Part shown: positions 9,098-26,800 of the stretch, one piece after another
Layout of the letters: every line of letters begins with the position of its first letter
Position numbering within the stretch: the stretch's first letter is position 1
DNA from: Candidatus Obscuribacteraceae bacterium
GTDB lineage: Bacteria; Cyanobacteriota; Vampirovibrionia; Obscuribacterales; Obscuribacteraceae
Direction of reading: 5' to 3'
NCBI GenBank assembly: GCA_044226015.1
Contig: JBGAHS010000002.1
Coordinates: forward strand, 288,001-352,000
Length of the DNA: 64,000 nt
The notes under the pieces: model-generated
What the model saw: only the letters and a program-made list of their open reading frames with translations
What the model was told of the DNA's origin: nothing
The model's database searches: none
Program-made: the position numbers and the translations under genes

Positions 9098-9895
9098 CTA
9101 AGATGGTAGCAAACGATCTCGTTCTTGCAAAAGTTGTGCCACCATACTAATCGCGATTTCATTGGGGTGATTGCTGCCAATCGGAAGTCCCATGGGGCAG
9201 AAGAAAGACTTGCTTTGCTCTGCGCTGAGACCAGCGTCGATAATGTCCTTACGCAAGCGCACCGCTTTAGCTTCACTACCAATTACACCGAGGTAGGGAA
9301 ACTTTCGAGATTGGAGAATCTTGATTAGAATTGGGCTATCGGTGCTGTGACCCATAGTCATGAGCGCCACAAAAGCACCATCGGGAATTTTCTGAACATA
9401 ATCAACCATATCTGGAACACAGATTGCATTGATAGAGGGACTTTGCGGAAGCTTGTTTAGCCATTCCTCGCGAGAATCAACACAGGTGACTTTGCAATCC
9501 AACTTTAGCAGCAAGTTCAATAGAGCATTAGCAACATGACCAGCTCCAAAAACCATAATATTCCACGAGCTACAATTATGTTTTTCGAAAAAGAGCTTGA
9601 CCATGCCGCCGCAGGTCATACCAACGTCACGTTCAAGGCTCCAATTTACGAAATGCGTCTTGCGTGAAGAGTCATCAGTTTGCAGCAGCTCAACAGCTTC
9701 GTCAATTGCTTTCTTCTCGACCTTGCCACCACCAACGGTTCCGTAAAACAAGCCAGAAGCAGTCACGAGCATTTTAGTACCGACATCATTCGGCACACTA
9801 CCTGTAGTATCAACAACCGTCACCGCAACAAAAGGAGTTTTACGAGACAAGAGCTCGTTCACCTTTTCGTAATAGGCTTGAGTGTCAATGCCCAT
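9098..9895 (-). CDS. xdhC: Xanthine dehydrogenase accessory protein
   Basis: GSVP, GTVGGG, GMTCGG, FGAGHV, YLGVIGS, PMGLPIG and EIAIS motifs; downstream of xdhAB. Confidence 0.92.
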   Translation of the reverse strand: MGIDTQAYYEKVNELLSRKTPFVAVTVVDTTGSVPNDVGTKMLVTASGLFYGTVGGGKVEKKAIDEAVELLQTDDSSRKTHFVNWSLERDVGMTCGGMVKLFFEKHNCSSWNIMVFGAGHVANALLNLLLKLDCKVTCVDSREEWLNKLPQSPSINAICVPDMVDYVQKIPDGAFVALMTMGHSTDSPILIKILQSRKFPYLGVIGSEAKAVRLRKDIIDAGLSAEQSKSFFCPMGLPIGSNHPNEIAISMVAQLLQERDRLLPS

Positions 9896-9916
9896 GGCGA
9901 GCTATCCTCTAACTGC

Positions 9917-12268
9917 TCAGGTTCCAGCCACCGCAGCTTTGGACTTTTTCTCATTTAGTGCAGCCAGGCACATTACGACTTCTTCGTTAGTTGCCGGCAA
10001 TTGAAGCCTGGCCAACTCAGCCCCACTTACTGAACCAAGCGCGTATTTTACTGCGCACCAAACAGACAGTCCCAAACAGAGAGGTGGCTCACCAACCGCC
10101 TTAGTTCCAACTACGTTTACCGGATTCTCATGGTCGATCCAATTCACATTGAAAACACGAGGCGTGTCTTGAACATTTGGAATTTTATAAGTAGTTGGAG
10201 AATGGCTCAAAAGAGTACCGTCTGCAGCATAGGTCAAAGATTCTGTTGTAACCCATCCCATGCCCTGAACGAATGCGCCGGTTAGCTGCCCTCTCGCTAT
10301 ACCAGGATTGACGGGCTTACCTATGTCCATAAGGATATCGACACGATCCACCACGATGTCACCAGTAAACTTGTCTATAGTGACCTCAGCGATGGCTGCG
10401 CCTTGTGTGTAATAAAGGAACGGATGACCGGATGCTGTGCCTTCAGGTCCAGCATCCCAACTCCAATCGATGCCTTTTGTCGCGTAGAAACCGCGCTCGC
10501 CAAGGCTAACTCGATTGAGATACGCAAGTTTCACCAACTCCTTAAAAGTCAGCTTGAATGCGGGTCGCCGACGATCAAAAATGTAGCCGCCTTCCCATCT
10601 CACGCTATCAGGCGCCGGAAGAATGTCGGCAACCTTAGTTGCAATATGATGCGCAGCGAGGTCTGTCAGCCCCTTGCGAATTTTCTGGCAAGCATCAACA
10701 GCAGCAGACCCATTGAGGTCTGTAGCACTTGATGCAGCAGTCGCAGAGGTGTTGTTGTTTTTCTCAGTTGATGTTGGCATCACAATAACTTGATCAGCAT
10801 CGATATCGAACTCGCCTGCCACAATCTGCTTGATGTTTGTGTTGACCCCCTGCCCCATTTCGGTTGCGCCAGTCGAAACTTGCACACTGCCGTCAAGGTA
10901 TACATTTACGAGCGCGTTAGCTTGATTCAAATGTTTTGTATTGAAGGAAATACCAAACTTAACGGCCGAGCACGCAATGCCTTTCAAATGCGTGTTTGAC
11001 TTAGCATTGAACTCATCAACAGCCAGCTTTCTTTGCTTGTATTCAGAAGATGTTTCGAGATCAACAAATATCTTCTCCAGATTATTATCGAAAACAATTT
11101 CCCCATAAGGAGTAGTGTTTCGCTCTTCCTTTCCATAAAGATTGCGCTTACGAACCTCCATGGGGTCGAGCTTTAAGTAAGCCGCGATTTCTTCCATGAT
11201 ATTTTCAATTTGTGCAATTCCCTGGGGTCCACCGAAACCACGGAAAGCAGTATTAGGAGGCAAATGAGTTTTGCAGATGGTTCCCGTTATATCGGCGTTG
11301 TCCAAATAATATGCATTGTCCACATGGCACATTGCTCTTGCCATAACGGCAGTGGATAGGTCGAAAAAGGCGCCGCCATCAGAATAGAAGTCGACCTTCA
11401 GACCAGTAATGACACCATCTGCGGTGAATGCGACTTTATAATCATTCTTGAAAGGGTGCCGCTTTCCGGTAACCTGCATGTCTTGATCTTTGTTATAGAC
11501 TATCTTTGCGGGACGACGAGTCTTCAACGCCACAAGAGCTGCCATTGCAGCTGGATGAGTAGCCTGGCTCTCTTTACCACCGAAGCCACCACCCATTCTT
11601 TTTGTGATGCAAACGACCTCATTTATGTTCAAACTAAGCAGATGCGCAATAACTTCTTGCACTTCTGATGGATGCTGCGTTGAAGAATGCACTTCAAGCT
11701 GATTGTATTCCTTCGGTATGACGTATGCCGCCTGAGACTCAAGGTAGAACTGCTCTTGTCCTTTGTTCTCAAAAACACCTTCAATAGTATGAGCTGCATT
11801 TTTGAAAGCTGTTTCTACATCGCCTCGCTTAATTCTGCGAGTGGGTCCTAAAAAGGATTTTTTCGCCCGAGCCTGGTCGATGGTCAATATCAAATCGAGC
11901 TTTTCGTAATCGATCTTTATTGCCTTTTTCGCAGCTTCGATAGCTTTTCGGGTCTCGGCAGCAATCACAACAATCGGCTGTCCCATGAATTCGATTTCCT
12001 CTTCGACAAGAAGAAGCTCATCCTTGATGATAGGACCAAATCTATTGTCGCTGGGTAGGTCTTTATAAGTAAACAAAGCTACCACGCCATCAACTTTTCT
12101 GGCGTCTTCGATGTTTAGCGACTTCAACTTCGCGTGTGAAACAGGCGCATAATAGAAATCTACAAGAAGCTCACCACGGGCTGTCGGAAAATCATCTATG
12201 TAGATGGATTCACCCGAGACGTGCCCCTTAGCTGAATCATGCGGTATATCCTTCCCTACGGCTGACAT
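9917..12268 (-). CDS. xdhB: Xanthine dehydrogenase molybdopterin-binding subunit
   Basis: HDSAKGHVSG, QFYLE, SSTQHP, GGGFGGKESQ, FRGFGGPQG, TEMGQG and KAVGEPP motifs. Confidence 0.95.
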   Translation of the reverse strand: MSAVGKDIPHDSAKGHVSGESIYIDDFPTARGELLVDFYYAPVSHAKLKSLNIEDARKVDGVVALFTYKDLPSDNRFGPIIKDELLLVEEEIEFMGQPIVVIAAETRKAIEAAKKAIKIDYEKLDLILTIDQARAKKSFLGPTRRIKRGDVETAFKNAAHTIEGVFENKGQEQFYLESQAAYVIPKEYNQLEVHSSTQHPSEVQEVIAHLLSLNINEVVCITKRMGGGFGGKESQATHPAAMAALVALKTRRPAKIVYNKDQDMQVTGKRHPFKNDYKVAFTADGVITGLKVDFYSDGGAFFDLSTAVMARAMCHVDNAYYLDNADITGTICKTHLPPNTAFRGFGGPQGIAQIENIMEEIAAYLKLDPMEVRKRNLYGKEERNTTPYGEIVFDNNLEKIFVDLETSSEYKQRKLAVDEFNAKSNTHLKGIACSAVKFGISFNTKHLNQANALVNVYLDGSVQVSTGATEMGQGVNTNIKQIVAGEFDIDADQVIVMPTSTEKNNNTSATAASSATDLNGSAAVDACQKIRKGLTDLAAHHIATKVADILPAPDSVRWEGGYIFDRRRPAFKLTFKELVKLAYLNRVSLGERGFYATKGIDWSWDAGPEGTASGHPFLYYTQGAAIAEVTIDKFTGDIVVDRVDILMDIGKPVNPGIARGQLTGAFVQGMGWVTTESLTYAADGTLLSHSPTTYKIPNVQDTPRVFNVNWIDHENPVNVVGTKAVGEPPLCLGLSVWCAVKYALGSVSGAELARLQLPATNEEVVMCLAALNEKKSKAAVAGT

Positions 12269-13710
12269 ACTGCTACCCTCCCCTCTTGCAAATCATAGAA
12301 AAACTTCAACATAAGATTTCGCGCAAGCTGCAAGCGAAATGCCTTAGAGCCACGAACATCATCAATCGGTGTAATTTCGCTGGCAGCCAGTTCCCCAGCC
12401 TCCCGCGCATTCTCGAGAGTGAGTTCTTTGCCTTTCCAGAACTCTTCAGTTTTTGGCAAGCGCAGAATTGTAGCCGCAACGCCACCATATGCAATGGCAA
12501 TGTTTTCCACCACATTTCCCTTCAGGCTTAGCTTGAAAGCTGCCGTGTTTGTCGAAATATCCAGGTGTTTGCGCCGGGACACTTTGTAAAGCTTCACGAT
12601 ATCGCCCTTCTTGGGAAGCTCTAAAGCAACGGAACTGATGAACTCGTCTCGTTCCATATCGAAAATTTTGTAGCCCTTATAGAACTCATTTATTCTCACT
12701 TGCCGGCTTCCGCGGGCGCTGCGAAGCTCAATCACCGCATCCATCACAAACAAGAATGGCGGTGTGTCAGCGATGGGTGAAGCGTTTGCGATGTTACCAG
12801 CGAGAGTTCCGGCATTTCTGATTTGAGGAGAACCAAATACCCACAAAATATTATGAAACTCAGGAACCTTTGCCCTGAAATAATCTTCGAGCTGACTTAA
12901 GGTAACCCTCGCACCAATCGTCACCAGCCCGTTTGTTTCAGAAATCTGGTCTAATCCTCGAAGATTTGAAAAGCTCATCACCGCCTGTGGTGCGTAGCCT
13001 CTCTTATTCATCACAACACAGACATCTGTTCCGCCAGATATGATTACAGCTTCAGGGTGCTCAGCCTTAAACTTGCTGGCGTCCTCTATGCTCGAAGGAA
13101 TGAATGCTGTAAAACCATCATCAGAGCGCAACGTCACACTCTCTTTTAAAGCAGACTGAAATGCCTTAATCATCTCTGCTTCAGGATACTGCTCTTCTAA
13201 TGGAAGCAACTCCTCAGGCTTTACTTCCATGCCCGATTTCAAAATAGGCTCGTAACCAGTACATCTGCAAAGGTTTCCCGTAGTGCAATCCTTCAGTCCC
13301 TGCAAATCTGCTTTGCCATTCACTTTTTTGAGGTCGTCAAAATAACCGCACATCGCCATGATGAAGCCAGGCGTACAAAAACCACACTGTGTGCCATGAC
13401 ATTCTGTCATGCACTTTTGAACTTCATTCAGCTGAGCATTTTGCTTCAAACCTTCAACCGTGATGATGTGGGTCAGGTCCATCTGATGCATGTACTTGAT
13501 GCAAGAGTTCAGCGCTTTGTACTCCAACTTTCCATCTTTCAATTTGCCAACGAGAACCGAGCAAGCACCGCAATCGCCTTCCTCGCAAACAATTTTGGTT
13601 CCAGTAACTCCCATGCGATATCGCAAGAACGAGGATAGCGGCTGAAAAGCTTCGTCTCCCTTAACTTTCCACTCTTTGCCGTTGACGTAAAAATGTAAGT
13701 AGTCTCTCAT
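12256..13710 (-). CDS. xdhA: Xanthine dehydrogenase small subunit (2x[2Fe-2S] plus FAD)
   Basis: CEEGDCGAC, QCGFCTPG, NLCRCTGY, GGTD and GNIANASP motifs. Start placed at ATG 13710 (AAGGA RBS). Overlaps xdhB. Confidence 0.93.
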   Translation of the reverse strand: MRDYLHFYVNGKEWKVKGDEAFQPLSSFLRYRMGVTGTKIVCEEGDCGACSVLVGKLKDGKLEYKALNSCIKYMHQMDLTHIITVEGLKQNAQLNEVQKCMTECHGTQCGFCTPGFIMAMCGYFDDLKKVNGKADLQGLKDCTTGNLCRCTGYEPILKSGMEVKPEELLPLEEQYPEAEMIKAFQSALKESVTLRSDDGFTAFIPSSIEDASKFKAEHPEAVIISGGTDVCVVMNKRGYAPQAVMSFSNLRGLDQISETNGLVTIGARVTLSQLEDYFRAKVPEFHNILWVFGSPQIRNAGTLAGNIANASPIADTPPFLFVMDAVIELRSARGSRQVRINEFYKGYKIFDMERDEFISSVALELPKKGDIVKLYKVSRRKHLDISTNTAAFKLSLKGNVVENIAIAYGGVAATILRLPKTEEFWKGKELTLENAREAGELAASEITPIDDVRGSKAFRLQLARNLMLKFFYDLQEGRVAVCQP

Positions 13711-14186
13711 AAACTTCCTTGATTGAGGCGAGTCAAAGTAGTTAGATCGCCTGAAATGACTATCATAGGGCATTCAATGAGATAAAACACCCATGGCAGC
13801 CCAACTTACTATTCCCCCGTGACCGAGACTCCAAGCGTCTACTATCTAATAACTTAATGGGAATTCCGGAGACTCCTCTCCCCGCAACCAAGCTTCTAGA
13901 AGCCTTTTCGGCATTTACCCCCAAGCCGGGGATGCTCAGAGCCGAAACAAAAGAGGAGAAGTGGCGACTTGCAAGCCTAGCCTGGCAAATCCTCTAGAAT
14001 TGAGCACCGGTTTTGTGAACGTAACTTCAAAAACTCTACGCAATCGCCCGGTGAGAGCAAGCAAAATCGGAAAACGAGATTAGTTTTTCTCTAGAATCGC
14101 TTAGCTGAAGCATTTGAGGCGGGTAGATGGCCAACGAAAGTAATAAAATTAGCCTGCTCTGAAATCACCAGCTTGTGAGGGATTGT

Positions 14187-15734
14187 ATGCACTCTTCGAA
14201 AGTTTTATCACTACTTTCTTCACTGCTAATCGCAGGAATTTCACTCACAGGCTCGGCGCATGCGGCGACAAAGAGTATTCTTGAAATTAAGCCAGCACCG
14301 AAGCACGAAGGCATAGTGTTCGACCAATATTACCTAGCCTGCTTATCTCAAGCATCCTACATGATTGGAGATTTGGAGAGCAAAACTGCTGTACTTGTCG
14401 ACCCAGAACGAAATATCGACAAGTATGTCAAAGACGCTGAGGCTCAGGGTCTTACGATAACCCATGTGATACTCACTCACGTTCACGCTGATTTCATAGC
14501 AGGACATATTGAAAGCGAAAAGCGCCTTAAAACAAAGATTTGCATGGGTTACAAGGCTGAAGCGAAATTCAAGTTTGAGCCGCTCAAAGAAGGAGACGTA
14601 ATCAAAGTTGGTCGCCTGAATTTGAAGGTTCTGGAAACGCCAGGACATACGACAGAATCCATTTCATTGCTGGTTTACGACAGCAAACAAGATGCAGCAA
14701 AGCCCTATGCCGTGTTGACAGGTGATTGCCTCTTCATCGGAGACGTTGGCCGTCCAGATTTGATGGCAACTTTCGGCGTCACTGCAAAAGAATTGGCCGG
14801 TATGGAATATGATTCATTGCATGACAAACTCTTGAAACTGCCTGATGAAACTCTGGTTTACCCAGCCCACGGAGCCGGTTCTCTCTGCGGCAAAAATCTC
14901 AGTGCAGAAACTGTTTCTACCATGGGCGAGCAACGCAAGTCTAATTATGCATTGCAGGACATGAGCAAAGAGAAATTCGTCAGCCTGCTAACGAGCAACC
15001 AACCAAAGCCACCAAAATATTGGGGATTTGAACGAAAGATCAATCTCAATGCACACAAGACGCTCGATGAAGCAATTGCCGAAAATTTAAAGCCTGTAAA
15101 GGCTGAAGCTGCTATTGCCTCGCAAGAGAAGAACAAAACGCAAATTCTCGATGTACGTGAAGCCGATGATTTTGCAAAACACTACCTGAAAGGTTCGGTG
15201 AACATTCCACTGAGCGGACACTATGCATTCTGGGCAGGAAACTTCCTGGACATCGATGCTCCGATTGTGGTTATCGCACCTACTGGCAAAGAGAAGGAAG
15301 CAGTAGTTCGGCTGGGACGCATCGGATTCGATAATGTCACTGGCTATGTTGATGGTGGCATCGATGCATTTTCGACTCATCAGGAATTACTCAATACTAC
15401 AAATCGTCGCTCTGCTAGTGAGTTGGCGAAAAGCATGCAGTCCGAAAAACCGCCACTGGTAGTAGACATTAGAAATGAAATGGAAAGAAAAGAGTCATTC
15501 ATTGAAGGCACCACTCCAATTCCATTGATGAACATTCTTGATGAGAGCAGTAAATTGCCTCACGACAGAGAGATAGTTGTGCAATGTGCAACAGGTTTTC
15601 GCTCTTCGATAGCAGCCAGCTTGCTGCGCAAGAAAGGGTTCGACAAAGTTACTGATCTCAGCGGCGGCATCACGTCATGGAAAGAGAGTAAACTTCCGGT
15701 AAAAGGCTCCACTTCTTGCAAAGCAGTTGATTGA
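14187..15734 (+). CDS. CstB-like persulfide dioxygenase / pseudo-rhodanese / rhodanese fusion with predicted Sec signal peptide
   Basis: MBL motifs THVHADF, TPGHT, TGDCLF and PAHGAGSLCGK. The first rhodanese domain has no Cys; the second has CATGFRS. N-terminus MHSSKVLSLLSSLLIAGISLTGSAHA; GAGGGA RBS before ATG 14187. Confidence 0.88.
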   Translation: MHSSKVLSLLSSLLIAGISLTGSAHAATKSILEIKPAPKHEGIVFDQYYLACLSQASYMIGDLESKTAVLVDPERNIDKYVKDAEAQGLTITHVILTHVHADFIAGHIESEKRLKTKICMGYKAEAKFKFEPLKEGDVIKVGRLNLKVLETPGHTTESISLLVYDSKQDAAKPYAVLTGDCLFIGDVGRPDLMATFGVTAKELAGMEYDSLHDKLLKLPDETLVYPAHGAGSLCGKNLSAETVSTMGEQRKSNYALQDMSKEKFVSLLTSNQPKPPKYWGFERKINLNAHKTLDEAIAENLKPVKAEAAIASQEKNKTQILDVREADDFAKHYLKGSVNIPLSGHYAFWAGNFLDIDAPIVVIAPTGKEKEAVVRLGRIGFDNVTGYVDGGIDAFSTHQELLNTTNRRSASELAKSMQSEKPPLVVDIRNEMERKESFIEGTTPIPLMNILDESSKLPHDREIVVQCATGFRSSIAASLLRKKGFDKVTDLSGGITSWKESKLPVKGSTSCKAVD

Positions 15735-17005
15735 TGTCTAGCAAAAAAGAGTTCCAGAAAGAACTAGATCGAGTCAAAAGCGAAATACACAGGCGGAATT
15801 TTCTGAAGGCGCTCTTGCTTGGCACTATAGGTGGTGCTGCAACTGCCTGCTCTAAGCTTGGTGAAAACTCTCAAGAGCCACCAATAAACATTCCAGCAGG
15901 CCAGACGGTAGCTCGTTTTCCAGAAAAATCAGAATTAATAGTGCTCACCGACCGCCCTCCACAGCTGGAGACGCCGCTACTATATTTGCGTGAGGACCTC
16001 ACACCAAACGAAGCATTTTTCGTACGCTGGCATTACTCAGGCATACCAACTCAGGTTGATTTGAGAACCTTCAAGCTCAACGTCACAGGGTCTGTAGAAA
16101 CTCCACTTTCGCTGTCAGTAGATGACTTGAAGAAGAACTTCGAAGCGAAATCGATCGTAGCCGTTTTGCAATGCTCAGGCAATTCGCGTCGTTATGTGGA
16201 ACCAAACGTACCCGGTGGTCAATGGCAGAATGGTGCGATGGGTAACGCAAAGTGGACGGGCGTTCCACTGAAAGCATTGCTGGAAAAAGCAGGGCTAAAG
16301 AAAGAAGCAGCAGAAATTGCCCTGGCGGGACTGGACGAGCCACCACTTTCAAACATGCCAAAGTTCGCAAAGTCACTGGCGCTGGAACATGCTCTGAGCG
16401 AAGATGTGCTGGTCGCTTATGCAATGAACGATGCGCCACTACCCATGGTGAATGGATTTCCGCTGAGACTCGTTGTGCCAGGCTATTACGCGACCTACTG
16501 GGTAAAATCGCTGGCTGAAATTTCAGTGCTGCCAACAAAATTTGATGGCTACTGGATGAAAAAGGCGTATCGAATTCCTGACAATGAATATGCAGAAGAA
16601 AAGCCTGACTGCCTGGCAAAGGACACAGTTCCCATTAACAGAATGAATGTCCGGTCGATATTTGTTCGTCCAGACACAAGCGACCTAGTAAGCGCCGGAA
16701 AGGCTTTCGATATCGAAGGCTTGGCGTTTGATGGAGGAGTGGGCATCAGCAAAGTAGAGCTGAGCATTTACTCCGGTGATAATAACCCTGGAAAGTGGGC
16801 TGAGGCAAAAATTCAGCCAAATAGTTTTGGCAAATACTCGTGGGTACGCTGGAAATTCAACTGGCAGCCACCTGGCAAAGGCGATTACACTCTTGCAGTT
16901 CGAGCAAGCAATGCAAAAGGAGAGACCCAAACAGATCTAATTCATTGGAATAAGAGTGGCTATATGCGCAACTCTATAGAGAAGATGAAAGTGACGGTGG
17001 TCTGA
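15734..17005 (+). CDS. sorA: Sulfite oxidase family molybdoenzyme (SorA-type), Tat-exported, probable lipoprotein
   Basis: RRNFLK twin-Arg followed by ATAC lipobox; LTPNEAFFVRWH, Mo-ligating LQCSGNSR, GFPLRLVVPG, Ig-like dimerisation domain. Confidence 0.85.
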   Translation: MSSKKEFQKELDRVKSEIHRRNFLKALLLGTIGGAATACSKLGENSQEPPINIPAGQTVARFPEKSELIVLTDRPPQLETPLLYLREDLTPNEAFFVRWHYSGIPTQVDLRTFKLNVTGSVETPLSLSVDDLKKNFEAKSIVAVLQCSGNSRRYVEPNVPGGQWQNGAMGNAKWTGVPLKALLEKAGLKKEAAEIALAGLDEPPLSNMPKFAKSLALEHALSEDVLVAYAMNDAPLPMVNGFPLRLVVPGYYATYWVKSLAEISVLPTKFDGYWMKKAYRIPDNEYAEEKPDCLAKDTVPINRMNVRSIFVRPDTSDLVSAGKAFDIEGLAFDGGVGISKVELSIYSGDNNPGKWAEAKIQPNSFGKYSWVRWKFNWQPPGKGDYTLAVRASNAKGETQTDLIHWNKSGYMRNSIEKMKVTVV

Positions 17006-17379
17006 TGAAAAGCTACATTTTGCTTCTACTCTTGTGCGCATCTTCTCTTCTTGTCTCTTGTTCAAGTACAGAACCGAGCGCAGATTCTCCTGCCCCGGCA
17101 CAAATCTCGAAAACGGCAAAAGGCGAAGAATCGCCAGTGCATAGCATTGAGCTCCCAAAACTGGAAGCAGACTTTCCGCCAGGAGAGGGAAGAGACCTGT
17201 TTATTTCACGATGCACCGTTTGCCATTCACTTCGCTACGTGACCATGCAACCCGACTTTCCTGAAGCAACATGGGTAAAGGAAGTTGATAAAATGCGCAA
17301 GACCTGGGGAGCACACATTACCGAGGACGAGGCAAAAACAATAGTATCGTATTTAGTGACAATCAAAGGCAAGAAATAG
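17005..17379 (+). CDS. sorB: Monoheme cytochrome c lipoprotein (SorB-like)
   Basis: LLVSC lipobox; PPGEG...CTVCHS...MQP...WVKEVDKM...GAHI pattern; TGATG overlap with sorA. Confidence 0.8.
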   Translation: MKSYILLLLLCASSLLVSCSSTEPSADSPAPAQISKTAKGEESPVHSIELPKLEADFPPGEGRDLFISRCTVCHSLRYVTMQPDFPEATWVKEVDKMRKTWGAHITEDEAKTIVSYLVTIKGKK

Positions 17380-17392
17380 GGAGATTGCTGAC

Positions 17393-20188
17393 TTGAGCGA
17401 AGAGCACCCACAGCAAGAAAACGAAGCAGCCCTGCCGCGAATAGAATATGGGCTTATCAAGGCACATGGCATCGCAGCTCTTGCGGCGGTGGTTATTTCG
17501 GGACTGTTTGGACTTTTCATTGCCACAAAAATGCATATGCCAGATATGGCCGGAACTCATGCATGGTCAAGCTGGGGACGACTTCGCTTCGACCACACAC
17601 AGGGCATATTTTTTGGATGGCTGGGAAATGCGTTTCTCATGTTTCTCTATCACATCGTGCCCCGCCTGAGCAATCGTGAAGTATTCAGCAAAAAGTTAGG
17701 CTGGTTCATATTTGCAGTTTGGAACTTTGCAATCTTGATTCCCGGATGGATATTATGCTTGATGGGACAAAGTCAGTCTCTGGAATGGGCAGAGTTTCCA
17801 CTTGTCATAGACATATTCGTTGTAGCAGGCATGGCACTCGCCACGCTTCAATTCGTTCAACCTCTTTTGAGCAACGCTTCACTATCAAAACTATACGTTT
17901 CAGGTTGGTACATCATCGGTGGACTCATATTCACCCTGCTCGCTTATCCATTAGGAAATTTCGTACCACAATTGGTTTCTGGGGCAAAAGGTGCAGCCTT
18001 CAGCGGACTATGGATTCACGATGCAGTAGGTCTTTTTGTTACACCGCTTGCGCTAGCGATCTCTTACTGGGTCATTCCGGCAGTCACCCGCCGCCCAATC
18101 TTCAGCCATTTCCTCTCGATGATAGGATTTTGGCTTTTGTTCTTTGTATATCCTCTTAACGGCACGCACCACTACGTATATTCGTCAATTCCAATGGAAA
18201 CACAAGTCGCAGCGGTTACGGCATCTGCGATTTTAGGCATCGACGTAATTCTGGTAGTCACAAACCTTCTGCTTTCAATGAAGGGCGCAGCTAAAGAATC
18301 TATGGATGACACACCGCTGCGCTACGTTTTAACAGGAACATTCTTCTATTTAATTGTAAGCCTGCAGGGCTCTCTACAAGCATTGATGCCTATCAACAAG
18401 CTAGTTCATTTTAGCGATTGGGTAATAGGGCACGCGCACCTCGCGATGGTAGGTTTTGCTAGTTTCACCGTAATTGGTGGCATGGGTCATATCTGGCAGC
18501 GAATTCCAGAGGCAAAGTTCAACGCAGGTTTGTACCGAGCTTCGTACTGGCTGATTTTTATCGGGATGCTAGTGATGGTAGGCGAGCTGACTCTTGCAGG
18601 TCTCGTCGAAGCTAATATCTGGCAAGGAGCACAACCGTGGATTGAGTCGGTGCGAGCAGTTAAGCAATACTGGCTGGTCAGGACGGGCAGCGGCGCAATC
18701 TTGTTAATCGGTTTCCTGCATTTGTGCTTCGCATTCTGCTCTGGCAAGAAAACCGAAAGCAGTGTTTCATCAATTTCAACACAAGAAGAAAATGCAGCAA
18801 GCAAGGATGAACAGCTTGCGCAAAAACCAGCGCCTGTTTTGAACATGGCCTATTTGTCAGCTTCAATTGCAGGCGTGGGCTTCTTTCTTATGTCTTTCAG
18901 CTTGCTTGGAATAGCTCCTGGTTTGGCTATCGAAAGTGACGTGAAGAAAACAAAACCAAAGACGATGATTCCGCTTACGGCTAGCGAAGAACATGGACGT
19001 GAGGTATACGCTCGCGAAGGATGCGCTTATTGCCACACGCAGCAGGTCAGAAAAGTAGAATCTGACGCCGAAAGATTTGGTATGCCAACCCGGTCATGGG
19101 AAACAGTTTATGATTACCCGCAACTCTGGGGCACCCGAAGAATAGGACCAGACCTGGCAAGGGAGTCTTCAGTTCGCACAGATGACTGGCAATTAGCTCA
19201 CCTATATAACCCCCGATTAATTGTAAGCGATTCTGTCATGCCGCCTTATCCCTGGTTGTTCGACGGTTCAATCGACAAACCTAATAAGGATGGCCGGGAC
19301 TTACTTGCATACATCAAATCGCTAGGTCGTGCGCGCGAGCTTTCAGGAATAGAAGGGCAACCGGTTCCCGAGTATTGTCAATGCTCAGATGACGTAAAAA
19401 AACTCGAAACCACACCAATAGGATTTAACGCAAACGCCAGCAAAGCCAGACGAACAGGACCTCCCATTCAATTGTCGATGCCTACAGATGCTGCTGTGCT
19501 CAGCACTACGGTGAAAAGAGGCGAAACTCTGTTCGCACAGAACTGCGCTTCATGCCATGGAGCCGAAGGACGTGGAGACGGCAAAGTTGCAGCAAACCTG
19601 ATGCCCGCACCTGCGAACCTGAGAATCAAGAAGCTTTCAGCGGCACGCATCAGCTTCGTGCTTGAGAATGGTGTTTATGGAACGTCCATGCCGGCCTGGC
19701 GTGATATGGCTCACGATGATTTGGTCAGCCTTGCCAGCTACGTAAGCACTCTTTCTGACAAGGCACCATCGATTTCGATGCCGGTCACCGATATGACGAC
19801 AACACTCTTCAAAAAGAATTGCGCCAGCTGTCACGGCACCGCTGGTGGTGGCGATGGACCAGCAGCGGGAGCAATGGCTCCCGTACCGACAAACTTCCAC
19901 CTGGTGAAGCCTAGCATTGCACGAGCGCTCATGGTAATCAACGACGGCATTCCAGGAACGTCCATGCCACCCTGGAAAGACCAACTTTCTCTGCCCGAAA
20001 GAGCAATGCTCGCTTCTTACGTTTCGTCCATGTATAAAGAAGAAGGAACTTCCAAAGCGAAGGCAGAAGGCACAAGCAAATCAGAAGGCAGCACTAAGCC
20101 AGAAGCAACTACTAAACCAGAAGGCACAACTATCTCAGAAGCCACTATTGATACCGCAACTGGCACAAAACCTGAGGTAAGAAAATGA
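17393..20188 (+). CDS. Fused C-family (cbb3-type) heme-copper oxidase: CcoN-CcoO plus two cytochrome c domains
   Basis: CcoN His ligands in GRLRFDHT, WIHDAVG, YPLNGTHH and DWVIGHAH; CcoO EGCAYCHTQ, GTRRIGPDL and SVMPPY; two CASCH domains each with GTSMP. Confidence 0.9.
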   Translation: MSEEHPQQENEAALPRIEYGLIKAHGIAALAAVVISGLFGLFIATKMHMPDMAGTHAWSSWGRLRFDHTQGIFFGWLGNAFLMFLYHIVPRLSNREVFSKKLGWFIFAVWNFAILIPGWILCLMGQSQSLEWAEFPLVIDIFVVAGMALATLQFVQPLLSNASLSKLYVSGWYIIGGLIFTLLAYPLGNFVPQLVSGAKGAAFSGLWIHDAVGLFVTPLALAISYWVIPAVTRRPIFSHFLSMIGFWLLFFVYPLNGTHHYVYSSIPMETQVAAVTASAILGIDVILVVTNLLLSMKGAAKESMDDTPLRYVLTGTFFYLIVSLQGSLQALMPINKLVHFSDWVIGHAHLAMVGFASFTVIGGMGHIWQRIPEAKFNAGLYRASYWLIFIGMLVMVGELTLAGLVEANIWQGAQPWIESVRAVKQYWLVRTGSGAILLIGFLHLCFAFCSGKKTESSVSSISTQEENAASKDEQLAQKPAPVLNMAYLSASIAGVGFFLMSFSLLGIAPGLAIESDVKKTKPKTMIPLTASEEHGREVYAREGCAYCHTQQVRKVESDAERFGMPTRSWETVYDYPQLWGTRRIGPDLARESSVRTDDWQLAHLYNPRLIVSDSVMPPYPWLFDGSIDKPNKDGRDLLAYIKSLGRARELSGIEGQPVPEYCQCSDDVKKLETTPIGFNANASKARRTGPPIQLSMPTDAAVLSTTVKRGETLFAQNCASCHGAEGRGDGKVAANLMPAPANLRIKKLSAARISFVLENGVYGTSMPAWRDMAHDDLVSLASYVSTLSDKAPSISMPVTDMTTTLFKKNCASCHGTAGGGDGPAAGAMAPVPTNFHLVKPSIARALMVINDGIPGTSMPPWKDQLSLPERAMLASYVSSMYKEEGTSKAKAEGTSKSEGSTKPEATTKPEGTTISEATIDTATGTKPEVRK

Positions 20189-20337
20189 GCATGCTATTCA
20201 TTCTTGCAGCAGTTTTAGCATTTGTATGTGTCTTTTGCTTACTATTCACACGAAAGAATTTCCGAATTCAGTTCGAAGAACCTAAGTACCAGATGCTAAA
20301 GACTGAGCAGCGCTACGACTCCCAAGTCAAAAGGTAG
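20185..20337 (+). CDS. 50-aa single-TM peptide, candidate CcoS/CcoQ-like oxidase accessory subunit (not in ORF track)
   Basis: ATGA overlap with the oxidase stop; MSMLFILAAVLAFVCVFCLLFTRKNFRIQFEEPKYQMLKTEQRYDSQVKR. Confidence 0.7.
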   Translation: MSMLFILAAVLAFVCVFCLLFTRKNFRIQFEEPKYQMLKTEQRYDSQVKR

Positions 20338-20454
20338 TCGAATAAATCTATAGCTGGCGTTACTCGCCAAGCAACCAGACTATCGTCATTGAGAATTTAT
20401 CTCATGGCTCGCGCTGGTGGGTACAAAGGTATGTGTAAAAGAGGATCCACGAGA

Positions 20455-21111
20455 ATGAACACAATAGTCAAAGTCAGGCTTCTCTCAGTCCTGGCAATTT
20501 TTTCGCTGAACACTGCAGTGCTAGCGCAAGAAGAAGGCAAAATACCAAGCGCTCCAGGCGATATGCCTCCAGACGTACAGGAATTTTCCAGCACGACAAG
20601 AACAGAAAGCTCGAGTTCTTCAAACAGCGTAAGTTCAAGCTCGAGTTCAACATCTAGTTCAAGTTCTTCAAACACAAATTCAAGCAACTCAAACACAACA
20701 AGCGAAACTATAAACCCTGATATTCGCCCTCAAAGCAAGAGTTCTTCAAGCACCAGCTTCAGTGTCACCAGAAAATTCGTTCCGAAATTCAAAGAACGCC
20801 TAAATGACCTGGCAGAACAGGTAAAGATGGCACTAAGCAAAGGCTGGATAAATGCCGATGAGTCCGCAAAGTTTATGGAACGTCAGACAAAATTACTCGC
20901 AGAAGAAGCGGAAGCCAACAAGCAGGGATACCCTAAAGCTGCAGTCGACAACCTCGAAAAGGAAGTGACCTTACTCAATGGCGACCTTTTTAAGGCGATG
21001 CATAAAACAGACCCGGTCAAGCCTGGTCCTGCGGACAAGGAAGTAAACGATCCCAACCTGATACCTGCATATCCTGACCCTGAGCTACAACCAAATAGTG
21101 GCACAAAGTGA
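20455..21111 (+). CDS. Exported hypothetical protein with Ser-rich linker and helical domain
   Basis: Signal peptide ending AVLA-Q; poly-Ser tract; GAGGA upstream of ATG 20455. Confidence 0.75.
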   Translation: MNTIVKVRLLSVLAIFSLNTAVLAQEEGKIPSAPGDMPPDVQEFSSTTRTESSSSSNSVSSSSSSTSSSSSSNTNSSNSNTTSETINPDIRPQSKSSSSTSFSVTRKFVPKFKERLNDLAEQVKMALSKGWINADESAKFMERQTKLLAEEAEANKQGYPKAAVDNLEKEVTLLNGDLFKAMHKTDPVKPGPADKEVNDPNLIPAYPDPELQPNSGTK

Positions 21112-23836: not shown

Positions 23837-26800
23837 CTGCGTTCATCTTCATACTACTCTCTGGCCGCGCTCTCAGCCTTAGTTTTGCTGATCTTACCGA
23901 CAGCAAAAGCCAGGGCGCAAAGCGCTGCAAATTACAATCTCGGCTCAGCGGCACGAACCAGAGCAGCAGGGCTCAGCCAGGGACAGAGCGTCAACATCAC
24001 GCGCGCTGGACAGTCGGTAACTATTAGGGCTGGAAGCCTATTGACACCAGCAGAGAAGGTGGCTTTAACTCAGGTTTTGTCGTCTGGACAACAATCTCTT
24101 ATATTGAATGCACGAGGTATGGCGATTGGTGGACAGTTCAGTTCTACCGACCTTTCTTCGAATATAGGCAACCTCGGTGTGCCGCAGGGAGTGACAGGCT
24201 ATCTCAACTTCAGCCAGCAAAATTCATTGAGTTTGAGCGGAAATTTGCTCAACAATGGCAGCCTGTATGCGTTTTCCAGTAACCCAGGCAATGCGACTGG
24301 AAGCATCAGCGCTAATAACATAGTCAATTATGCCAACGCTTTGATTTCATCAAATTTGAACAGCGCATTTGCAAGCAGCACAGGTGCCTTGCCAAATTTC
24401 AATTTGATTTTACACGCGGTCAACAACATTACCAATCACGGCGTGATTTCCAGCTCAGGCTCTTTAACTTTGTCGGCTGGCAGTTCGTTAATCAACACCC
24501 CGCAAACACTCACTCAAACAACCCAAACTCTAATTCAAGCTCAAAACAACCTGAACATAATCACAAGCTCAATAATCAATTCGGGAAATTTGACCTCGCT
24601 TGCGTCAAACATTAACGTAAGCTCGTCTCTCCAAAAACTCGACTTCAATAATAATTCCGGAGTAGTGAGTGCGATTCTCGGAGACATTAACGTAAGCAAT
24701 CTTTCCAGCTCTGCCTTAGCATCGTTGAATCTTCAGGGTGGGAATTTTTACTCTCAATCACTCAATCTCTCAGCTGCTAGCGGTGCGGTAGAGGCAAATC
24801 TGGGTGAAGTGAGCGGTTGGATCAACGTAAACGCATGCAAGGCGAACGTTGGCGCCGCGACAGACAATCTGAAACTGGGAAACCTGAACATAACCGGTGA
24901 CCCTACGTTTTTTAATTCAGCAGGAACCCTTACCTTATCAAACCTCAGTAATACCTCAGGAAACGCTCTGGCATTGATAGCAAGCCATGACGTCATCGTC
25001 AGTGCCGGTACAATCGACACAACAAATCCACTCGGCGGAAATGGTGGCAACCTCACCATCATTGCTGGTGCCAACATCACTGGCGGAAGCAGTGGTTCAA
25101 ATGACACGACAACAACCCTTACTATCACTGGTCCCTCAGCAACGGGTGGGGCCATTGACACATCAGGTGTGAGTTCCATTAATACCAGCGGAACTTTGAC
25201 AACAACCAACCACGGCGGAAACGGTGGCAATGTTTTTATTGCTGCTTTCAGTGGTACTAAATCAGGAACCCTTGAACCTGGCACAGTCAACCTGGGAAGC
25301 AGCGGCTACATCAATACCGCTGGTGGTGGCAGTGATTTCACAAGCAGCGGACGAGTCACCATCATGGCTGGAGCAACAGCCGACCCCGCATCTGGAGCAG
25401 CAATTGTCCTTCCAGCCATTTATACAGCGACAGACCCTGTTTACTCTCAATCAAGTTCATCAGGCGGCAACGTCACGATATCGACAGCAACGCCTGTTGT
25501 TTCAGGTACTGTCACCATATTAAATGGAGCCATGGGCGGTACAGGAAGTATCACAGCAGGAACAACACAAAACACAAGCGTTTCCATTGCATCAAGAGGT
25601 GGCGGCGCAAGCATCGAGGTTCAGCCGACTCTGGCACAATGGCAGATAGACATAATCACGCAGGCGCTCAACATTGTTAACGCCCAAAGATTAGCGGAAG
25701 ACCCGTCACTGCCAGCACTTCAATATAGCGCTGGGCTCAGCGCCGTGGCCAGCCAGCAGGCTTCCTATTTAGCACAAACTGGACACCTTGGTCATTTCAG
25801 CACACTAGGGGAAACGCCAACAAACAGAGCTACAGTTATAGGCTTATCCACTTCCGGATGCTGCGCGGAGAATGCAGGGTTCGCTTCTGGTTACACAATT
25901 TTGGACGGATTCAATGTCGTCAACGACATGATGTTCGCAGAACCCAATACCAGTGGCACCCACCACTTCAACTTAGTGGGAACAAGCGCCAGCCACAATA
26001 ATTACGCTGGTTTCGGATTTGCAACTAATGGCTCGTCGATGTACTTCGTAACTGATTTTTCCAGAAACGACCCAGGAGCTGGCAAGACCAACATCAACAG
26101 CACTCCAATCTTGGGTGGGCTCGGTGGTGCACCAGGCAACACACCAGTACCACCCGTAGTATCAGGCAGCAACAACACTGTTCGTGCAATAGGTGCTAAT
26201 AATTATTTGCCCACCAGCATCATAAGCAACGGAAACGTTTCAATTACAGCCGGAAAAGATCTTACTGCAACAGGCTCTATAATAACGAACGGGCAAAACG
26301 GTATTCAATCTAGCTCAGGTAGCCCAAGAAATGCTACGAACGCGGGAAACATCAGCATAACAGCTGGAAATAATGTAAGCCTGTTCAATCTACAAGCAGG
26401 CGGGGGAATTGGAGCGACTTCTAACTCAGCAAATAAAGGCGCAGGTGGTGCTGGTGGCAGCATCAACGTTAGCTCTAGCAACGGAAGCATAAGCATTCTG
26501 CCTCTCAATACCGCATGTTCACCTTGCATAGCCGTCGCCGCACAAGGTGGTGCTGGCGGAGCCGCGATGGCTAGTGGACTCAGCGGAGGCAAGGGCGGCG
26601 ATGGCGGCACAGTCACGCTGACAGCTAACAATGGAAATATAAATCTAACAGCAATCGAAGTTGGCGGTGGCGGTGGCGCAGGCGGAGCAGGTGGTAGCAC
26701 AGGTGGTGCCGGTGGTGCTGGTGGCAAGGGTGGCAACATCACACTTTCTGCAAGCACAATCACAATACAAGACTACATTTCAGCCTCTGGCGGTGGTGGC

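Follow-up and report, generated by a model that had tools for sequence, protein, structure and literature searches.

Judged by its sequence, a five-gene operon of a Candidatus Obscuribacteraceae bacterium probably encodes a private, periplasm-facing electron transfer chain, in which a SorAB-type sulfite dehydrogenase would pass electrons to a fused C-family oxidase and a persulfide dioxygenase likely feeds the chain from sulfane sulfur or thiosulfate. The SorAB-oxidase pairing recurs across several bacterial phyla. Close gene packing on its own is ordinary; the above-chance feature is the gene order that recurs across phyla. Both sulfite respiration and fused cbb3 oxidases were known before; the SorAB-oxidase module is apparently undescribed, and our literature search found no paper describing it. 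Annotation pipelines score genes singly, returning a cbb3 oxidase below its cut-off and a generic molybdopterin enzyme, and so miss the module.

The window, that is, the whole stretch of 64,000 nucleotides analysed here, contains the operon as five open reading frames (ORFs) on the + strand, from 14175/14187 to 20337:

14175/14187-15734, + strand: gene 1, CstB-type persulfide dioxygenase-rhodanese, 519 aa counted from GTG
15731/15734-17005, + strand: SorA (predicted), 424 aa
17005-17379, + strand: SorB (predicted), 124 aa
17393-20188, + strand: one-chain CcoN-CcoO-dihaem oxidase, 931 aa
20185-20337, + strand: CcoQ/FixQ-like single-TM peptide, 50 aa

The ORF of gene 1 opens at GTG 14175, and GAGGG precedes the ATG at 14187. 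The first two junctions, at 15734 and 17005, read TGATG, the third is a 13-nt gap (17380-17392) and the fourth, at 20185, is ATGA; reading the ORFs thus confirms the co-oriented, overlapping or near-abutting genes of the initial annotation. Its view that all five products are exported or membrane-bound agrees with the predicted signals, called by eye and pattern, and with hydropathy: gene 1 has a Sec-type N-terminus ending AHA/A, SorA has RRNFLK followed by ATAC, SorB has LVSC, and by hydropathy the oxidase has 12 segments and the peptide one. Four CxxCH motifs (SorB 70; oxidase 544, 718 and 810) account for the proposed maximum of four c haems. The promoter and terminator scan of the operon gave 5 and 11 sites, respectively, against 7.9 and 9.1 expected, and Rfam gave zero matches in the window at the gathering score and nothing of note upstream at E<=5.

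SorA scores 482 bits against NCBIfam NF052245 (cut-off 600), with SorT at 187, SoxC at 164 and MsrP at 48 bits as rivals, and its top PDB match is 2BLF_A (E 1.2e-115). The MsrP/YedY identity is rejected on these scores, and the earlier assignment to SorA stands. SorB scores 75.5 bits against NF052246 (cut-off 93) and has 2BLF_B as its sole PDB match (E 7.5e-8), so that both subunits fall below the curated cut-offs. R99, H101, C148 and Y280 of SorA correspond to R55, H57, C104 and Y236 of the Starkeya novella enzyme and are conserved in 55-56 of the 56 SorA proteins from operons; we take C148 to be the Mo-ligand Cys and H101 and Y280 to be active-site residues, and R55 has the role of active-site Arg in the available text of PMC3561395. 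A twin-Arg pattern occurs in 55 of 55 operon SorA proteins, followed by a lipobox in 39, and the CxxCH and distal Met of SorB are conserved. With the Mo-ligand Cys, the active-site Arg, His and Tyr and an adjoining monohaem SorB all present, genes 2 and 3 are a SorAB-type sulfite dehydrogenase by sequence, and sulfite oxidation is their predicted activity. S. novella SorAB (PDB 2BLF) is the best structural match for both subunits and likewise combines a Tat-exported Mo subunit with a monohaem SorB. It differs in that here both subunits carry a lipobox and share one operon with a terminal oxidase, whereas a separate cytochrome c550 is tentatively thought to serve S. novella, according to the available part of PMC3561395.

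The oxidase comprises CcoN (~17-455), CcoO (~485-645) and two cytochrome c domains (~705-885), with Pfam matches to COX1, FixO and two cytochrome c families and best PDB matches to cbb3 CcoN/CcoO. By its sequence it is assigned to one divergent clade. Trees were computed with FastTree, and ten CcoN-like rows without the active-site residues were removed before the CcoN tree. The six His ligands, the helix-VII Tyr (Y253), R65, E131 and E134 are present in 82/82 clade rows, as is a clade signature, G205-x-W207-x-H209-D210. The combination that defines a C-family O2 reductase (six His, helix-VII Tyr, no FeB glutamate, cytochrome c second subunit) likewise occurs in 82/82 rows; an O2-reductase active site is thus kept throughout the clade, which supports the O2-reducing role named in the initial annotation. 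The canonical ccoNOQP models are not reached (TIGR00780/00781/00782 at 191/583, 113/201 and 63/180 bits).

Compared with Pseudomonas stutzeri CcoNOQP (PDB 3MK7), the haem and CuB ligands, the helix-VII Tyr, the Ca-site Glu pair, T215, Y223 and S240 are the same, and the operon encodes a CcoQ-like peptide. The differences are W203G, N208D, H243G and E323Q, absence of the CcoP membrane anchor, an N-O-P-Q order in one or two ORFs, and ccoGHIS genes that do not adjoin. The fused cbb3 oxidase of Nitrospina gracilis (954 aa; available text of PMC3578206) also joins CcoN, CcoO and two further c haems in one chain and shows the Trp203-to-Gly change. It has His202/Gly203/Tyr208, as does a Sinorhizobium-type sister branch (L164, P0259, P0263; ~33% identity), whereas the operon clade has G-L-W-I-H-D; the same text does not link sorAB to the fused oxidase.

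Of the 72 loci whose flanks are long enough, 60 have the downstream peptide (61 pattern matches, one of which was in the wrong frame). E31, P33 and K34 of its E-x-P-K motif are invariant in 47 aligned members. FixQ (PF05545) is the commonest Pfam match, in 8 of these 47 at E<=10 (best 6.5e-4), with no match for the window copy, and the neighbours of the peptide in the Atlas carry no protein names. The FixS profile does not match the peptide; since its matches are confined to the housekeeping operon and a single weak site elsewhere, identity as CcoS/FixS was rejected. The single TM segment noted initially is retained, and the formerly unassigned peptide is now described as a CcoQ/FixQ-like single-TM protein, on its sequence features.

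Gene 1 matches Pfam Lactamase_B and two rhodanese domains, in an MBL, pseudorhodanese and rhodanese layout, and PDB entries 3TP9 (E 1e-75) and 3R2U (E 1e-60). Its metallo motif, THxHAD, is without the final His of glyoxalase II, whose motif has a further, last His. When residues are numbered from GTG 14175 and CstB residues are taken from PMC12934615, H102/H158/D184, C238-G239 and C471 align with CstB H56/H119/D145, C201-G202 and C408, and Q59, G235, R433 and R476 align with Q13, G198, R370 and R413; every CstB residue checked is kept. The three domains, the His-His-Asp (Fe) triad, the loop Cys-Gly and the rhodanese Cys, which define the CstB type, are shared with Staphylococcus aureus CstB (PDB 3R2U; PMC12934615), as are the flanking Arg residues. 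The S. aureus enzyme belongs to a cytoplasmic sqr/cstA/tauE pathway, whereas gene 1 has an N-terminal extension with a predicted signal peptide and adjoins sorAB. Homologues with a signal make up one side of a branch, with 44 of 122 rows (43 with a hydrophobic N-terminal extension by threshold and one shorter one by eye), and the host also has a signal-less paralogue (C7:165974-167389, 50% identity).

The identification of gene 1 as a persulfide dioxygenase-rhodanese therefore holds, but its proposed conversion of sulfane sulfur to sulfite has to be amended: the product of CstB in S. aureus is thiosulfate rather than sulfite (PMC12934615), and an extra rhodanese step would be needed to reach sulfite. 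Since the CstB residues are kept and TsdA and SoxY were not found in the genome, gene 1 does not connect directly to SorA. In fact, the 92% complete host genome has zero matches to soxY or a SoxA/TsdA domain, and neither SQR nor another sulfide entry enzyme was found in it, which extends the initial remark on missing sox and sqr genes from the window to the genome.

For the survey of the clade, 80 loci were examined of 145 matched members. SorA/sorB lie directly upstream of the oxidase in 64 (63 with both genes, one with sorB at a contig edge), the thiosulfate dehydrogenase TsdA takes the place of SorAB in 12, and four are cut by contig ends. A cytochrome-c-reducing sulfur dehydrogenase thus adjoins the oxidase in 76/80 loci, and in 76/76 where the partner is visible; an extra cytochrome c gene lies between the two in 32/80. 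Gene 1 accompanies the module in melainabacterial loci only (17/80), and is absent next to sorA in three of 20 assessable melainabacterial loci and in every non-melainabacterial one. The conserved core is therefore sorA-sorB-(cytochrome c)-oxidase-peptide, with the dioxygenase as an addition confined to melainabacterial loci; of the five-gene order first proposed, the last four genes are kept across phyla. The dehydrogenase front end switches twice on the CcoN tree, with TsdA(B) replacing SorAB in two branches. Plasmid copies of the oxidase in Komagataeibacter and Paraburkholderia stand behind tsdBA-like cytochrome genes, the latter with DsrE, YeeE/YedE and sulfur-transferase genes nearby.

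Among 104 genomes of the host family, the oxidase occurs in 26, SorA (at least 57% identity) in 26 and both in 25, within ~4 kb on one contig in 22. In the only oxidase-only genome, the contig ends where sorAB would lie; seven genomes have a distant SorA alone. SorA and CcoN distances are correlated (Mantel r 0.84, 53 loci, 0/2000 permutations as high), although kin are not independent. Control C-family loci L036, L037, L162 and L164, and L163 (2.5 kb flanks), lack adjoining sorAB. SorA relatives often occur without the oxidase: SorA matches were found in 60 plasmid records, the clade oxidase occurs in seven of 25 among the oxidase matches listed, and two of these seven records, when inspected, had no sorAB. 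The available supplement of Hausmann et al. (PMC6018796) gives acidobacterial sorAB-like pairs and ccoNO different locus tags. Proteomics of Methylovirgula HY1 (SorA and cbb3 up on thiosulfate; available part of PMC9371685) was set aside as support, because its ccoN (p00030) is TIGR00780-annotated and far from sorAB (p00095-96).

The GC contents of the four large genes (0.46-0.49) match that of the genome (0.46-0.50), giving no sign of recent transfer. The initial annotation called the operon self-contained: the sulfur and oxidase genes do lie together, but those for Moco, Tat and cytochrome c maturation are elsewhere in the genome. In five genomes, xdhABC or allantoin genes adjoin the operon; a link to purine catabolism was rejected because these genes are absent from the remaining loci, and the adjacency is taken to mark an insertion site. 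By eye, a separate, long COX1-family gene of the host genome reads as qNOR. The host also has a complex III-linked housekeeping C-family oxidase (C5:64-73 kb) and a bd oxidase, so that a further oxidase suggests a special donor. Soo et al. are said to have described in 2017 a complex III-IV operon with a C-family oxidase in Melainabacteria. That oxidase, present in this genome too, shares host lineage and oxidase family with the operon enzyme (PMC6349859, as far as its text was available). It is ~31% identical to the operon CcoN, on a distant branch, and is fed by Rieske/cytochrome b rather than SorAB.

The gene neighbourhood could also reflect co-regulation rather than wiring, the oxidase being a sulfide- or sulfite-tolerant spare that draws on the general cytochrome c pool and is induced by the same stress as sulfur-detoxification genes. 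Haem-copper oxidases are inhibited by sulfide, which induces resistant ones (PMC12934615), the clade has its own active-site signature, LysR regulators flank 9/80 loci, and in Sideroxydans a distal cbb3 oxidase is up on thiosulfate while tsdAB is not (available part of PMC8788666). Against this, the near-abutting partner is always a cytochrome-c-reducing dehydrogenase (76/76), never SQR or another detoxification gene, a cytochrome c gene often lies between (32/80), and a fixed partner fits the fused donor haems; we regard this explanation as unlikely. Still less probable is altered chemistry, either a haem-copper enzyme that performs, for example, NO reduction or a SorA with another substrate. 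It would accommodate the Gly at the conserved-Trp position four before the first CuB His and the Asp next to that His (82/82 rows), and the doubt of Hausmann et al. about the function of low-homology acidobacterial sorAB-like genes (available text of PMC6018796). The cross-linking Tyr, which O2 reductases have and NORs lack (10.1101/2021.10.15.464467, in its available part), is intact together with the three CuB His; a NOR-type Glu four after the His is absent (G213); the Nitrospina terminal oxidase shows the identical Trp-to-Gly change (PMC3578206, available text); the genome has the putative qNOR gene mentioned above; and the SorA catalytic residues are intact. We thus consider it very improbable.

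Alternatively, the chain may be wired but uncoupled, only removing sulfite and scavenging O2 with periplasmic protons and conserving no energy. The P. stutzeri H243 position is G/A in 82/82 clade rows, E323 is replaced, Y223 is F in 12/82 and the CcoP anchor is absent, which makes energy conservation uncertain; moreover, the dioxygenase step gives no respiratory electrons, and RuBisCO was not found in the host genome. However, the housekeeping melainabacterial oxidase also shows H243-to-G and E323-to-Q, with a His at the Y237 position (23/23 rows). These changes were therefore rejected as a mark of degeneracy and are typical of non-canonical cbb3 enzymes. T215, S240 and Y251 are present in every row, so the channel residues are partly kept, and loss of coupling seems decidedly unlikely.

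In the private chain that we favour, SorA would oxidise sulfite in the periplasm (sulfite + H2O -> sulfate + 2H+ outside + 2e-). Electrons would run from Mo to the SorB haem, through the extra cytochrome c in the 32/80 loci that have it, to the dihaem domain, the CcoO haem, haem b and b3-CuB, crossing four c haems (one of SorB, three of the oxidase) to O2 and bypassing quinone and complex III. Even without pumping, charge would be conserved provided that the cytoplasm supplies the chemical protons. The step held with least certainty is the feed: persulfides would be converted to thiosulfate by the CstB-type protein, whose rhodanese domain would split thiosulfate into sulfite and persulfide, with SorA as the sulfite sink; the net result would be sulfane sulfur to sulfate without Sox. 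In Thermus thermophilus, for which respiration from sulfite through cytochrome c to an oxidase is established (available text of PMC3561395), sulfite electrons likewise reach O2 via c-type cytochromes below complex III (SOR, c550, c552, ba3/caa3), but by soluble shuttles and general A-/B-family oxidases rather than a dedicated, co-encoded C-family oxidase with fused haems. The initial annotation offered lithotrophic energy or reactive-sulfur detoxification; since RuBisCO was not found, any energy gain would be lithoheterotrophic, and the likely role is detoxification that gives some energy to a heterotroph under low O2.

A broader reading, which we hold only tentatively and consider doubtful, is that the whole divergent cbb3 clade serves as a dedicated terminal oxidase of sulfur oxidation in a membrane-anchored supercomplex with exchangeable SorAB or TsdA, and that, with the periplasmic CstB-type extension in Obscuribacterales, sulfane sulfur or thiosulfate is turned into sulfate along an energy-conserving, Sox- and quinone-free route. 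If so, such sulfur oxidation would exist in the lineage that is sister to photosynthetic cyanobacteria and in Acidobacteriota and Planctomycetota that abound in soil.

If the private chain exists, respiration of sulfite or thiosulfate under low O2 could extend to many heterotrophs of soil and fresh water that are not regarded as sulfur oxidisers, with Acidobacteriota, Planctomycetota and roughly one in four sampled species of the melainabacterial host family as candidates. One non-canonical cbb3 clade would gain a specific role, and CstB chemistry would have a new location if the CstB-type enzyme is periplasmic. The module can be tested, as cultured carriers exist; the sorAB form occurs in Edaphobacter aggregans DSM 19364 and Kolteria novifilia Pan216. 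A separately acquired oxidase would then join the story of aerobic respiration in the non-photosynthetic Cyanobacteria.

The operon is real and conserved. The initial annotation had described five ORFs with their junctions and four CxxCH motifs, all of which agree with our ORF reading of the window. The operon and its flanks are as follows:

9098-13773 (-), xdhABC cluster on one flank, divergent from the operon
14187-15734 (+), gene 1, CstB-type persulfide dioxygenase-rhodanese
15731-17005 (+), sorA
17005-17379 (+), sorB
17393-20188 (+), fused oxidase (gene 4)
20185-20337 (+), peptide
20389-21111, unrelated exported protein with no family match, on the other flank

The GC content of the operon is in line with that of the host genome (G000; 8.19 Mb, 92% complete), in which the window spans C1:288001-352000. 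The named homologues closest to its proteins are labeled Candidatus Obscuribacterales or Melainabacteria, which places the host among the non-photosynthetic relatives of cyanobacteria. In four of the five carriers of the genus (G000, G004, G006 and G007; not G002), xdhABC is divergent from the operon. Sites with xdhABC or purine-gene neighbors are the window (9098-13773, minus strand), L032, L033, L034 and L035:8254-11938, and such neighbors are absent from the other loci; genome G019 has genes for ureidoglycolate lyase, malate synthase and an allantoinase-like amidohydrolase upstream in place of xdhABC. Directly 5' of xdhA, three genomes share a similar sequence of ~60 nt (L032:14090-14240, L033:9110-9350, L034:9200-9460), which the window's own spacer does not resemble. 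It is possibly a purine-responsive regulatory site; one copy scanned against Rfam gave no meaningful match. In G007, the spacer 5' of xdhA contains 19-nt tandem repeats (L034:9236-9330). Elsewhere in the window, a Gly/Ser/Asn-rich ORF of 2719 aa (23885-32044, plus strand) resembles a large exoprotein.

A GTDB scan with the oxidase matched 145 relatives, and the counts of loci below refer to the best 80 of the 145, which include a few near-duplicates. The order of sorA, sorB and the oxidase is conserved: sorA and sorB lie directly upstream of the oxidase in 63 of the 80. In 12, all acidobacterial, a TsdA-type dihaem cytochrome lies 3' of the oxidase instead, often with a DsrE-like gene and sometimes with an exported rhodanese upstream; one further locus has sorB at a contig edge and four are broken by contig ends. 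Sorted by NCBI label, the loci with sorAB belong to Acidobacteriota (21), Melainabacteria (17), Planctomycetota (15), Cyanobacteriota (4), Myxococcota (2), unlabeled genomes (2), and Bacteroidota, Pseudomonadota and Saccharimonadota (1 each). An additional monohaem cytochrome, which the window lacks, separates sorB from the oxidase in 32/80. On proteobacterial plasmids, the same oxidase clade stands behind tsdBA-like genes.

The Cyanobacteriota-labeled loci (L075, L085, L086, L087; e.g. Drouetiella, Oculatellaceae) nest in the melainabacterial branch of both the CcoN and SorA trees, and it is doubtful that these labels indicate photosynthetic hosts. Many acidobacterial copies are flanked by an exported LVIVD-repeat protein (13/80) and a LysR regulator (9/80), and the upstream side has a bicupin in 7 loci and an alginate-export-family porin in 5, as observed in L057-L078, L088 and L101. 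The irregular breaks in sorA or the oxidase of L058, L059, L064, L073, L074, L100, L125 and L130 point to misassembly or gene decay. In Sinorhizobium fredii, the sister-clade oxidase has an FccB-type sulfide dehydrogenase flavoprotein ~3.5 kb away (L164:13496-14767, minus strand); the sister branch may also be sulfur-linked.

Gene 4 is a fusion in which CcoN and CcoO are joined to two cytochrome c domains. Of 7997 protein clusters scored, at least 1099 match it at E<=1e-50, and 53 of the 80 loci encode it as a single ORF of >840 aa with three CxxCH motifs. All metal and haem ligands and the catalytic Tyr are retained, and G-L-W-I-H-D around the first CuB His is the clade signature. The changes H243 to G and E323 to Q (Pseudomonas stutzeri cbb3 numbering) also occur in all 23 rows of the housekeeping, complex III-linked enzyme and are therefore not special to the clade; Y223 is replaced by F in 12 of 82 clade rows. 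In a FastTree CcoN tree of 142 rows, all 82 clade rows fall in a single branch (SH 100), well apart from the 23 rows of the housekeeping melainabacterial enzyme. Within it, the 23 clade rows from Melainabacteria cluster together (SH 96), a topology that would fit a single acquisition in this lineage followed by patchy retention. The peptide gene follows the oxidase in 60/72 loci, and its product weakly resembles CcoQ/FixQ. At its C-terminus (~20048-20188), the window oxidase has a tail of ~45 low-complexity residues with S/T-K-P-E-G/A-T repeats, missing in five aligned orthologues.

Profile and PDB matches identify the molybdenum enzyme as SorA and its cytochrome partner as SorB, with profile scores under the NCBIfam cut-offs. 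Across 56 operon copies, the catalytic residues of SorA hardly vary; 55/55 show a twin-arginine pattern, followed by a lipobox in 39/55, and a lipobox-like motif occurs in 30/60 SorB proteins. In the host family (104 genomes sampled), the oxidase and matching SorA occur together in 25 of 26 genomes in either direction; in a first sample of 40 relatives, both were present in five, all of the host family. Judged from these distributions, the oxidase appears to need a sulfur partner and SorAB does not depend on the clade oxidase, because SorA relatives without it are common.

Gene 1 encodes one metallo-beta-lactamase and two rhodanese domains, and its top PDB matches are 3TP9 and 3R2U, with ETHE1-type enzymes far behind. 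3R2U follows the numbering used for S. aureus CstB in PMC12934615 residue by residue. Gene 1 agrees with CstB in the Fe triad, loop C238-G239, rhodanese C471, Q59, G235, R433 and R476 (gene 1 counted from the GTG at 14175). According to that paper, CstB converts two persulfides to thiosulfate without releasing sulfite, and its own loop Cys stands in for glutathione. The direct step from sulfane sulfur to sulfite that had been proposed for gene 1 is thus not borne out; the loop-Cys chemistry would fit a compartment poor in small thiols.

Among the best 120 homologues, the window protein and the host paralogue, a hydrophobic N-terminal extension was detected in 43 by threshold and in one by eye. 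With the extension cut off before tree construction, a single branch splits these 44 from the rest (SH 100; one change vs. 36 when shuffled). Gene 1 is found at >=54% identity in 23/104 family genomes, all 23 with operon-type SorA, and adjoins sorA in 20; in G089 and G090, the signal-bearing gene 1 sits on another contig. Across the 80 loci it adjoins sorA in 17, all melainabacterial. The host also carries a signal-less CstB-type paralogue (G000:C7:165974-167389) and a persulfide reductase-like CoA-disulfide reductase-rhodanese fusion (G000:C11:72.9-74.6 kb), which suggests a separate cytoplasmic sulfane-sulfur system.

G000 encodes MoeA, TatC, two cytochrome c assembly genes and four TauE-family genes, in addition to a complex III-linked C-family oxidase, a bd oxidase and a qNOR-like gene. 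SoxY, SoxA/TsdA and RuBisCO were not found in this 92% complete genome, and none of its 22 Pyr_redox_2 matches, inspected as ORFs, resembles SQR; nine were scanned against NCBIfam, the CoA-disulfide reductase-rhodanese being among the results. The housekeeping locus (L037, G000:C5 64-73 kb) comprises ccoN, ccoO-dihaem, ccoS (FixS), a dihaem cytochrome, Rieske, two cytochrome b genes, the second with a terminal HdrA-like stretch, and an MvhD/FlpD-family gene; it is the known melainabacterial complex III-IV operon. G005, G003 and G006 carry an orphan pair, in which a dihaem cytochrome accompanies CcoO-plus-cytochrome c and ccoN is missing from the vicinity (L039:6203-8172, L040:7542-9496, L041:6276-8074).

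Our best reading is a private chain in which electrons would pass from sulfite through SorA (Mo), SorB, the two C-terminal haems, CcoO, haem b and b3-CuB to O2, joining below complex III. In Thermus, entry at this point has been shown (PMC3561395); for SorT/SorU of S. meliloti, it has been proposed (PMC4760952). We consider it likely that SorAB is wired to the clade oxidase and, given the wiring, that charge is conserved. Rival readings are that the oxidase and sulfur genes are co-regulated without being wired, that the module is uncoupled and serves detoxification, and that its chemistry has changed. That gene 1 supplies SorA through a thiosulfate/rhodanese cycle is a tentative proposal, given somewhat less than an even chance; other possible sources of sulfite are the cytoplasm, via TauE-type exporters, and the surroundings.

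The enzyme kind of each part and sulfite respiration are already known, and the haem-copper family tables of 10.1101/2021.10.15.464467 may class the clade already. The literature searched, with subscription papers mostly outside its scope, held no account of the clade oxidase sharing an operon with sorAB or tsdA, or of a signal-bearing CstB. Two things appear to be new: a separate oxidase clade whose members are tied to an interchangeable sulfur dehydrogenase and, in Obscuribacterales, a CstB-type enzyme with predicted export.
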